Assembly (NCBI RefSeq): GCF_011386835.1
Contig: NC_088791.1
Location: forward strand, 2,232,001-2,296,000
DNA: 64,000 nt
Source of the DNA: Chrysemys picta bellii
Lineage: Eukaryota
Reading direction: 5' to 3'
Shown here in pieces: positions 1 to 7,430 of this stretch; position 1 is the first letter of the stretch; each line of letters starts with the position of its first letter. The notes below the pieces were generated by a model, which saw only the letters and a list, made by a program, of their open reading frames with translations, was not told the DNA's origin and ran no database searches. The translations under genes were made by a program, and so were the position numbers.

Positions 1-1013
1 TTGGCATAACTGTCTAAAAAGTAGGGGCCTACCTGTAGTTCTCCACCCTGTAAAGCGTGCCGTATTTGTATATTTTCTTTGTGAGAGATATACAACAGCC
101 ACTGAATAGATGGGGTCGAATATCTCTTTCTGCCTGTGATAGTTGTCTGGAGGGAGAAGAGCTACCGTGTTAGGCTCCAAAAACATAAACCTGTACATAG
201 CCATGCAGACAGATGCCAGTGTTATGTACCGGAATGGATCTAAATACAGTTTTATCTCAGTGAATTTACCAGGTTCTTTCTCTACTATATCTCCCTTCTC
301 CGTCATTTTCATAATCTCTTTTCTGTATAGGATACAGGCCTGTCTCAAAATTTTTACATCCTGCTGACAGTAATACGCGAGCTCTTTTTGCAAGTCAAAC
401 ACCTCAGAGCTGTGGTCCTGATACCAGTCGAGAAACTCTGCTTTTTCTCTGGGCATCGTGCTTTCTACACCATAGTGCTCCATACCGGGCACAGGCCCCA
501 CGTAATTTTGATTTTCTAACGTGTTAAAAAAGTGTGGAAAATACCCTTTGCACCCTTCAAACCCCATCGCCTGCGGTAGCTTGCTAAGCTTCATGGGCAA
601 GAAGTTTAAAGAGTCTATAAAACGAATGCCCAGGGCCTTAACTTCCACGCACATTAGTTTACTACCCTGAGTGATCAGTTCTAGGCCCATCTTTTCCTTG
701 AGTAACTGTTTAACAATAAAGTATGCATCATAACCTTTAGAATTGTGTGCTAGGAACGTGTAGTCCCGAAACGCTTTGCCAATAAAGGTCTTCACAAACA
801 CATAAAGACACTTATCGCCCTTAAATTCCCAGGATTTTTCTGCCTTTAGGGACATAGCAAAAATGTAATTGGGAGTGTGCACCCCGGTCTCCTGCATGCA
901 TTCAAAATCATAAAAAATATACTTTTCTGAAGATTCAGGCTTTCTAAGGCTGTCCATAAAACAGAGGTGGCCGTCTACATCACCAACGATCAACTCCTGA
1001 CACTGCTTACAAC

Positions 1014-1173
1014 AACAACAACAACGAGTCTGGTGGCACCTTAAAGACTAACAGATTTATTTGGGCATAAGCTTTCGTGAGCAAAAACCTCACTTCTTCG
1101 GATGCATAGAGTGAAAGTTACAGATGCAGGCATTATATACGGGCACATGGAGAGCAGGGAGTTACTTCACAAG
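1014..1173 (-). mobile_element. Penelope-like element pLTR fragment with (AAC)n end and 12-bp target-site duplication
   Basis: ACTGCTTACAAC is duplicated at 1002-1013 and 1174-1185. The body GGTGGCACCTTAAAGACTAACAGATTTATTTGGGCATAAGCTTTCGTG resembles reptile Penelope/Neptune pLTRs (from recall). Confidence 0.8.
1065..1105 (-). ncRNA. Minimal type I hammerhead ribozyme motif (dimer-type, palindromic stem III)
   Basis: Minus strand reads GCAU-CCGAAGA-A-GUGAG(GUUUUUG)CUCAC-GAAA-GC-UU|AUGC. Stem I is GCAU/AUGC, stem II is GUGAG/CUCAC, and the AGCU palindrome forms stem III. The core carries a U4C change relative to CUGANGA. Confidence 0.65.
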
Positions 1174-2699
1174 ACTGCTTACAACGTCTCCCTTTACACC
1201 TATGCCGCTTGTCCACGTAAGACTGACACTTCTCACACAAAGTTTTAGACAGGCATTCAACTTGGTTTTTTGATGCACAGTCGATATGTCTGTCTAAACA
1301 CTCTTTAGACCGACAATACAGTCTACAGCTAGGACACCGCTGCTGCTCACCCACGCTGTCTGAGCACGTTACGCTCAAGCAGAGGCGGCAATGATACCTG
1401 CAAGAGTGGTCATGGCTGTACACCATGTGGCAAAACTCACAATTTTTCGCTCTGAACAACATTTTTACATCCAAAACCCCATAGTAATGCTCATCGTGCA
1501 ACAGGATAAAATAAGTCTTGGGGTACACTGTGCCCCCCGTTTTAAAAAAACCCCAGCCGCCTTTCGCCGTATACAACACCACCTGTATGTTAACTCCTAA
1601 ATGCTGTTCAAACTTTGCTACGTCACTGAGCATAACCTTTTTTTGATCTGACCACCCCAGTTTCTCATGTAACTTTCTTGCCTCCGCTAACAATTCCGCG
1701 TCCGTAGGTTTACGATCGGACATGACGGCCAAGAGCCCACCCGCAAAACACAAATTGGTACCGGTGTAAGTCAGGTCTACTAAACACTGTCTCTTTTTAT
1801 GAATAATTTGACTATTAAGGATAGTATTTAAAACTCTAGGAGCGCCCCCACCCCTGTTTTTTACAACTGTCACAACAAGGCGCAACGTCCCATCAAGATG
1901 CAACTCTCTATTGCTCTGTAGCAGTTTTGAGGTCTGATTTAAAAAATCCTCAGCAGACAGCTCATTTCTAGTTCTTTTGACCGAAAACAAAGAATTAGTT
2001 AAATTACGGCTCTCTAAACTTAACTCAACATAATCATCAGGGCCTACCCTACCATTAATGTCATCGAGCACTAACTGTATTCCCCGGTGTATGGCTTCAC
2101 CAACCTGCTGAGCTGAATTTATTTGCTCAAGATTGACAAAACGAAATTCCTCACAATACACCGACCCCCCAAATCTGGATACTTCATGTTGCCAACTTCT
2201 CACTCTCTCCATATACACCTCGGCATTTTCGGGGTTACTTGGGGGTTCCTCTACGGGATCATTAGCGGCATCTTCTACATCAGATGCTATTTGAGAGTCA
2301 GACTCTGAGGTGCCTCCATGAGGGTCATTGGGAGTAGAACGGGACCCATCTAGAGAGCCCTCTGGGGAATTTGCTAAACCAGAGTCTAATTCCACCTCCC
2401 CATTTTCAGACAAGCCAGTTTGAGAGCCTCCAGTAGGGGACATCTCTTTTTTTTTTTTTTTTTTTTTCCTCATTACCTCTTTAGCCCTTTTTAAAATTTT
2501 TACAACAACCCGGGCCTGGAACTTTTTGGCAGCCATCTGTTTATCCCCCAAACACTGTCCCCCCTTTTGTTTACACATAAACTGATGTGTACCCTGGAGG
2601 GTGTCCCTTTTACCCAGGCCCCTTTTTACGACTAGTCATGCCTGCTCAGAGCCACCCTTTCCATCCCTTATGTTTTTCAGCATGGCTCTGAACCAAGCA

Positions 2700-6226: not shown

Positions 6227-6329
6227 GTCTCCTCTCAGCAGCCTTTCCGCGCTTTCGAAAACACGTGTCCTTGGTAAGAGATGGCCGCCTCCTCTGTCTG
6301 GCGCTGGAACTTATGGGGTAATGGTGCTG

Positions 6330-6680
6330 CACTCTGATTGGCGGAGGGCCTTGGGGGGCGTTCTTAGCGGGGTCACACAACTCCCTTTTGGAGGGGTCAC
6401 CCCAACCCAAAAGTCACCCTAATTGGTCAAAATCTCCTCTCGGGGCGGTCCTATCGGGACGAAACCCCTCCTGATTGGTAGAGGGTGGTGGGGGGAGTTC
6501 TTAGAGGGGTCACATGACACATCTTGCTTCCAGCCAGGTGGCACCTCGACCCCGGAAGTAATACCCTATGGGGTGGAACTTCCGGTGACAGATGGGTGGG
6601 GCCAAGTGGTCAAGGGGAGGGGCTTAATGGGTCAAGGGGCGGGGTTAGGGTTTGATTGATGGTAGGGCCCTTATACTACT
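6330..6680 (-). promoter_or_regulatory. GC-rich terminal (probable TIR) region with promoter motifs
   Basis: CTGATTGG (CCAAT) boxes near 6334 and 6471, a GGGGCGGGG box near 6636, and inverted ETS-like CCGGAAGT (6552-6559) / ACTTCCGG (6578-6585). Confidence 0.45.
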
Positions 6681-7430
6681 CTTGTGCTTCAGGGCAGGGG
6701 ACAGCAACTCACAAAGTTCCAGGAAAGTTCCTTTACCCATCCTAAAGTTTCGCAGCCACTGTGATTCATCCCAGACCTGCAGCACTATACGGTCCCACCA
6801 GTCCATGCTTGTTTCTCGGGCCCAGAATCGCCATTCCACAGCATCAACATGACCCATTGCCACCATGATGTCCACGGCGCGGGGTCCCGTGCTTTGTGAG
6901 AGGTCTGTGCCCCACTCAGACTTAATGTCCTCACCACGCTGCCGTAGCCTCCTCGCCCAATTTCTCAGCATCTGACTCTGAAAAAGGCGGAAAATAAGGT
7001 GCGAGGTGTTGACAACGGCCATAACTGCAGTGATGATCGCAGGAGGCTCCATGCTCACAGTGCTGTGGCGTCCGCGCTGTCACTCACCAGAAAAGTGCAC
7101 GAACTGATTGCCCGCCGGCGCTTTCAGGGAGGGAGGGCGGGAGTGACGGTTGAATGACGACAGTTACCCAAAACCACCCTCGACACATTTTTTGCCCCAG
7201 CAGGCATTGGGGGCTCGACCCAGAATTCCAATGGGCAGTGGGGACTGCGGGAACTGTAGGATAGCTGCCCACAGTGCACCGCTTCCAATGTTGACACTTG
7301 CCCCGTTACTGTGGATTCACAAAGTTGAATTATTGTCCTTAGTGTGGATACACACGTTCGACTTTGTAATATCGGTTCCACAAATTCAATTTAAGTAAAA
7401 TCGAACTACTCTCGTAGTGTAGACATACCC
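6681..7430 (-). mobile_element. Harbinger A, copy 0: transposase 5' part and terminus, interrupted by the Polinton
   Basis: ORF 6645-7058 (ERWFWARETSMDWWDRIVLQVWD type). Ends GTAGTGTAGACATACCC followed by TAA at 7431-7433. The TCA site at 6916-6918 is empty where copy 1 carries element B. Confidence 0.92.

Follow-up and report, generated by a model that had tools for sequence, protein, structure and literature searches.

A decayed Maverick inside a Harbinger transposase and tandem duplications anchored at Maverick tips

Vertebrate Mavericks (Polintons) carry two gene modules, one with int, minor capsid, PW, major capsid and protease and the other with polymerase, ATPase, PM and PZ, according to the available excerpts of the survey by Barreat and Katzourakis (PMC8097293). 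In the same excerpts 96% of vertebrate loci are degraded, turtle copies are known, an intact (potentially active) copy is defined by eight unbroken core open reading frames (ORFs), and particles are stated never to have been seen (PMC8097293). A terminal-protein domain is predicted in Polinton polymerases; proteins of that kind become covalently attached to the nucleotide that primes synthesis (PMC11071308, available in part). Exit from the chromosome is a model only, single-strand loop-out followed by excision, as restated in the accessible portion of PMC4046053.

The locus described here has the inward-pointing, opposite-strand modules, the (AGT)2//(ACT)2 ends and the 6-bp target duplication given for vertebrate Mavericks in the excerpts of PMC8097293. 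Their mean length there is 16.9 kb (PMC8097293, available in part), against 24.3 kb for this element and about 15.8 kb for the same element without an internal duplication.

The insertion, its ends and its genes

The window is the whole analysed stretch of 64,000 nucleotides, C1:2232001-2296000 of the assembly G000, so that a window position equals the C1 position minus 2,232,000. It opens inside a Maverick/Polinton that occupies C1:2214393-2238680 (24,288 bp), of which positions 1..6680 fall within the window; the left end lies 17.6 kb upstream. From the window, the first-pass annotation had read a viral segment ending in ACTACT and followed by CTTGTG as a large virus-like element integrated in a Harbinger transposase. 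ACTACT indeed occupies 6675-6680 and CTTGTG 6681-6686; the in-window part of the element ends in GGGCCCTTATACTACT, followed by CTTGTG and Harbinger sequence. The predicted reciprocal AGTAGT end with its own CTTGTG was found at C1:2214393, in the context ccgggtgtc-cttgtg followed directly by AGTAGTATAAGGGCCC. Upstream of it the Harbinger continues, with C1:2210025-2214390 matching the empty paralog at 96.8% and the 3' part of the transposase matching DDE_Tnp_4 (Pfam, E=8e-35). The paralogous Harbinger is, as had been noticed, uninterrupted near 31068, where it reads GGGTGTC-CTTGCG-CTTCAGGG with a single CTTGCG at 31068-31073, and the right flank 6681-6919 matches paralog positions 31068-31306 at 96.7%. 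The hallmarks of Polintons, namely AGTAGT//ACTACT ends, terminal repeats and a 6-bp target-site duplication, are all present. These ends, the CTTGTG duplication, the Harbinger continuation and the genes listed below support the proposed integration.

C1:2214387-2214392: left target-site copy CTTGTG, a perfect 6-bp duplication with the right copy
C1:2214393-2215412: left terminal repeat of about 1 kb, starting AGTAGT, with 88-89% identity to its right counterpart
5779..6680, minus strand: right terminal inverted repeat, ending ACTACT
6681..6686, plus strand: right target-site copy CTTGTG
6681..7430, minus strand: interrupted Harbinger transposase, 5' part, together with the end of the Harbinger (GTGTAGACATACCC followed by TAA)
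31068..31073, plus strand: CTTGCG at the empty paralogous site of the duplicated Harbinger

The empty paralog has an insert of its own, a second Harbinger of about 5 kb (window 31307-36258) lying about 235 bp from the spot that matches the Maverick site. The surroundings had been called a lectin array, a name supported by a single C-type lectin exon on the minus strand (window about 16870-17010; Lectin_C, E=1.2e-5), found in one of the 88 ORFs of the unit that were scanned; the region is duplicated at about 96%. The unit with this exon measures about 30 kb and is repeated at least three times around the Maverick.

Targeting of Harbinger by Mavericks was considered and rejected. Of 96 tip rows, duplicates included, only those of this tip, L094 and L097 had Harbinger sequence within 600 bp, with two Harbinger references as the basis of the count, and Harbinger-like sequence was far commoner than Maverick in the read runs examined. 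With so few adjacent tips and so abundant a Harbinger, the insertion looks like chance, and the position of the Maverick inside Harbinger looks incidental.

The genes anticipated in the intervening DNA, those for integrase, packaging ATPase, adenain-like protease and capsid, are all there, together with a polymerase. The plus-strand module runs through integrase, likely minor capsid, PW, major capsid and protease, and the minus-strand module through PZ, PM, ATPase and protein-primed polymerase.

About C1:2215694-2216676, plus strand: integrase, frameshifted; rve E=5.4e-5 in one of two pieces, below the curated cut-off
From about C1:2216823, plus strand: likely minor capsid, frameshifted; named by gene order
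C1:2217581-2218054, plus strand: PW, open; named by gene order
C1:2218060-2219367, plus strand: major capsid, 435 aa, open
C1:2219370-2219927, plus strand: protease, open; Peptidase_C5 E=1.1e-4, above the cut-off
C1:2220100-2220814, minus strand: PZ, frameshifted; named by gene order
C1:2220814-2221143, minus strand: PM/GasderminX, 109 aa, open
C1:2221196-2221858, minus strand: packaging ATPase, one internal stop; weak profile matches, E about 0.01
C1:2221872-2226053, minus strand: polymerase, copy 1, broken
1..2578, continuing upstream, minus strand: 5' part of the protein-primed DNA polymerase, copy 2; DNA_pol_B_2 E=9.7e-19
5249..5803, minus strand: accessory ORF, 184 aa from stop to stop

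On the upstream sequence the protein-primed family B polymerase was recognised by PF03175 (DNA_pol_B_2, E=7.8e-28 and 9.8e-19), and the gene is broken in both tandem copies. Pfam gave no match for the accessory ORF and no informative match for the minor capsid, PW and PZ ORFs, which sit at the expected positions. With integrase, minor capsid, PZ, ATPase and polymerase all broken, the element falls outside the definition of an intact Maverick by eight unbroken core ORFs. The virion module of a Beta adintovirus of the Terrapene type, hexon plus GasderminX, is present: the major capsid is identical to hexon P0159 of Terrapene box turtle adintovirus at 425 of 435 residues (98%), and PM is 99% identical to the GasderminX of that virus. 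A single-sequence fold model of the capsid was unusable (pLDDT 32). The closest named relatives of the capsid protein come from turtles, which points to a turtle as the host. Judged by these two protein identities, the Maverick is a new, decayed copy of an already described turtle lineage, that of box turtle adintovirus.

The outer approximately 370 bp of the terminal repeat is perfect in the two youngest copies (arms 0/369 apart), and the inner part differs by side. Across 24 arms from loci throughout the genome, arms grouped largely by side (3 label changes versus 8.3 when shuffled). A recombinant or chimeric element, an idea that arose from the 88-89% repeat identity, was dropped because the youngest copies also differ by side. 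Since the inner parts are side-specific even in those copies, imperfect repeats are a family trait, and a separate origin for the two arms of this particular Maverick stays conceivable. An ORF of about 150 aa lies inside the terminal repeat on the minus strand (window 5861-6310), and G runs are found between about 15 and 110 bp from the tip.

Decay of the insertion and duplication of its right part

Compared with six close copies, this Maverick carries private substitutions at 72/6119 and 58/5481 sites (1.06-1.18%). Coding changes, counted at codons on which four or five other copies agreed, comprised 9 synonymous and 33 non-synonymous ones, with a pN/pS of 1.0, as neutral decay within a chromosome would give. 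The polymerase is further interrupted by a host insert, absent from all eight of the closest other Maverick copies and very deeply covered by reads:

1014..1173: retroelement-like insert of about 160 bp with a (CAA)n tail and a target duplication of about 11 bp

The outer repeat arms of this Maverick differ at 14/251 columns, against 0/369 in the two youngest copies. It has thus decayed in the chromosome after insertion. Between the host paralogs there are 103 substitutions in about 4,330 bp (2.4%, or about 1.2% per lineage), close to the private divergence of the element, so that insertion likely took place soon after the array unit had been duplicated. The order proposed earlier, integration after Harbinger duplication, fits the empty paralogous site and the similar divergences.

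The right 8.5 kb of the element is doubled in tandem and in the same orientation, and the right terminal repeat occurs twice, 8,525 bp apart. The window holds most of the second copy, a feature that the first-pass annotation could not have seen.

C1:2221629-2230154: tandem copy 1
C1:2230156-2238679: tandem copy 2, with 1..6679 as its in-window part

The junction precedes the start of the window by 1,845 bp. There the repeat tip reads ...ACTAC, its final base gone, and is followed by one extra base (C1:2230155) and then by sequence from the middle of the ATPase gene. The copies show 0 substitutions over 8,524 bp and 4 gap bases at three sites (8,527 columns); all three differences are short indels within or next to simple repeats and resemble sequencing errors. 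Both copies carry the same private substitutions and the same retroelement-like insert. Had the duplication dated from the insertion, about 180 differences between the copies would be expected. The absence of substitutions places the duplication long after the insertion, provided that gene conversion has not made the copies alike.

Tip junctions at other loci

The tip pattern had 112 exact matches in the genome versus 0 for a reversed control; two tip patterns gave 112 and 113 genome-wide matches, and 82 distinct tip contexts were examined among the matches listed. Within this set, host sequence flanked 76 tips (65 after collapsing shared flanks) and six ran into element sequence: this Maverick, an element on C20, three contexts in an element on C3 and one old case on C5. 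Leaving out the C5 case gives four independent junctions, namely this one, the one on C20 and two on C3.

C20:6709139-6725444 (L018-L019): element with a 2,207-bp tip-anchored tandem duplication; junction at C20:6723237; target duplication caagta
C3:129195267-129224856 (L067-L070): element with four internal tips of two junction types; junctions at C3:129197923 and C3:129205728; target duplication gagagg

The outer ends of each of the three elements still carry matching target duplications. The C20 element is the older, its tandem copies differing by 4 transitions in 2,207 bp (0.18%), and its junction has an intact tip and one added base. As at the present locus, the duplication on C20 evidently long post-dates the insertion, the outer repeat arms there being 25/168 apart. 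On C3 the element is very young and differs by 0.3-0.5% from the copy at C12:20732915-20748928; its integrase end is present in four partial copies in tandem, which are 99.96-100% identical. The two junctions of this element have 5 and 4 added bases, which copy 8-nt words within 60 nt.

In all four junctions the tip breakpoint lies 0-3 nt from the terminus, and the inner breakpoint varies from 2.2 to 8.5 kb inside. Bases (1-5) were added in every case; two inserts are templated and two are just 1 nt long, for which "templated" would be a weak term. The terminal base is lost in three of the four independent junctions versus 1 of 65 host-flanked ends among the matches listed (Fisher p=3e-4), and of six genome-wide matches to tips without the final T, five are internal junctions. 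Finding duplications through a tip search favours tip-anchored cases. In a screen independent of tips, covering 11 other stretches, no near-identical direct repeat longer than 250 bp was found within an element; it returned a 370-bp repeat at 88% on C11, repeat-internal units at 91% on C12 and, on C5, repeats that fall outside the element.

A possible fifth junction, at C5:9119383 (L078), was left uncounted, as it is about 87% identical to the neighbouring repeat and its outer end is degenerate. The element there, C5:9112610-9119951 (L078, L130), is a deleted Maverick in which about 570 bp more of terminal repeat and a degenerate second tip follow the tip; it may stem from an old event of this sort. 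Elsewhere, dozens of single tips, many 30-60 kb apart, lie at C3:0.15-7.0 Mb and at C1:238.4 Mb (L044, L045, L052-L066). Of 15 single tips fetched from C3, 13 share the flank tccgttttcc, which points to one old insertion amplified with its host array as the likely source. Four short elements of 1.8-5.2 kb have facing ends and matching 6-bp flanks (C1:192993945-192997112, C10:17996573-17998360, C2:103030330-103034753 and C1:73669709-73674920) and are likely internally deleted, non-autonomous copies.

All duplication loci come from one assembly, and the tandem copies might be artefacts beside a real insertion, with contigs breaking at repeat boundaries and two reads or haplotypes being joined serially. 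The lack of substitutions and the small simple-repeat indels at this Maverick would suit such an error, as would the allele-like divergence on C20. Reads are uninformative here: the best run contained 0.47 of the words of the junction stretch (24 runs listed), which is no evidence either way, and four runs over C1:2230060-2239400 gave short contigs of other copies, with no listed piece bridging either junction. An assembly error is nevertheless unlikely, since none of the three loci has N gaps, the junctions hold added bases, two inserts copying nearby words, loss of the terminal base is almost confined to internal tips, and C3 shows two different junctions, one of them three times.

Origin of the junctions and known systems

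The fixed tip breakpoint, the variable inner breakpoint and the added bases suggest that a DNA end arose at the tip and underwent repair by the host. The reading that we lean towards, with modest confidence, is that a complete, decayed Maverick lay in the Harbinger and that its right 8.5 kb was much later duplicated in place through an end at its own tip, with Maverick proteins acting in trans. The integrase might nick or cut the integrated terminus, or terminal-protein-primed synthesis might begin there. The host-side end would then be extended across the tip for 2-8.5 kb, with the sister chromatid as template, or the displaced strand would break there. Finally, the new end would be joined to the tip end by a microhomology-type end-joining that removes up to 3 terminal bases and adds short templated inserts. 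Both tip priming with strand displacement and an integrase cut would give the geometry of the duplication; priming would also explain the loss of the first A in three of four junctions, which would fit removal of a protein-linked 5' base. The protein making the tip end would probably be of Maverick origin, and with the polymerase and integrase of this copy broken it would come from another copy; Mavericks just 0.3-0.5% apart exist in this genome. Against an end made at the tip count the small number of junctions (four), the intact tip on C20 and possible gene conversion.

A fragility that involves host processes alone could also be at work, if the G-rich terminal repeat stalled replication forks (G-quadruplex) and break repair made tandem duplications with one end close to the tip, with no Maverick protein involved. 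The G runs near the tip would serve this purpose, and end-joining after aborted homologous repair produces tandem duplications in C. elegans (PMC8654963, available in part). This origin is improbable, as the breakpoints in four of four junctions lie at the terminus (0-3 nt) and not at the G runs.

The duplication might instead precede integration, arising in free linear virus DNA by ligation of terminal fragments to full genomes, or a decayed copy might have been recently remobilised in trans. Free ends would lie exactly at the tips with a protein-linked first base, and such an origin may hold at the very young C3 element, where it is more likely than at the other loci. For the present locus and C20 the outer repeat arms are 14/251 and 25/168 apart, against 0/8524 and 4/2207 between the tandem copies, and none of the eight closest copies is a donor with the private retroelement-like insert, which makes these routes very unlikely overall. 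Nested insertion of a sister copy into the ATPase gene by normal strand transfer, with recombination then removing the overlap, would give the same geometry and suits the intact C20 tip, but is barely plausible, because strand transfer keeps the tip and adds no bases, whereas three of four junctions lost the terminal base and all four gained bases.

Under in-place duplication through an end at the tip, tip-anchored duplications likely record recent cutting or priming at integrated virus ends. Tentatively, and as a wider possibility that we hold less firmly, integrated Mavericks may be re-entered at their ends by viral machinery in trans, through primed synthesis or integrase cutting, the duplications without the protein-linked first base being footprints of the exit step and pointing to very recent activity of Maverick proteins in the turtle germline.

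No report of tip-anchored tandem duplications in Mavericks or Polintons was found in the open literature as represented mostly by titles and the starts of abstracts, without supplements. Two Polinton/virophage papers were searched inside for "tandem" (PMC8097293, PMC8547959); in the available text of the former the word occurs once, in the reference list, and its supplementary loci may include such cases. The element itself is ordinary, and its notable part is the self-duplication anchored at the tip, which recurs at three loci. The terminal-base junctions would offer a countable footprint of the exit step in reptile, amphibian and fish assemblies, and the present cases suggest that self-duplication explains some oversized Mavericks.

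In maize, alternative transposition of Ac reportedly duplicates host DNA. In the accessible parts of PMC3744419 and PMC4270019, an element end likewise helps to make tandem direct duplications, with re-replication, but Ac does so with cut-and-paste ends, whereas in the present case a self-synthesising virus has its own sequence duplicated from one end. The duplications from aborted homologous repair in C. elegans (PMC8654963, available in part) have the same tandem direct form and the short templated inserts of polymerase-theta joins; they differ in that one breakpoint here is fixed at the virus terminus. Terrapene box turtle adintovirus, the exemplar of Beta adintovirus in the available part of PMC8502044, is the closest in hexon and GasderminX, on which the comparison is based, and the copy described here differs from it in being integrated with mapped ends, decayed and extended by an 8.5-kb duplication anchored at its tip.
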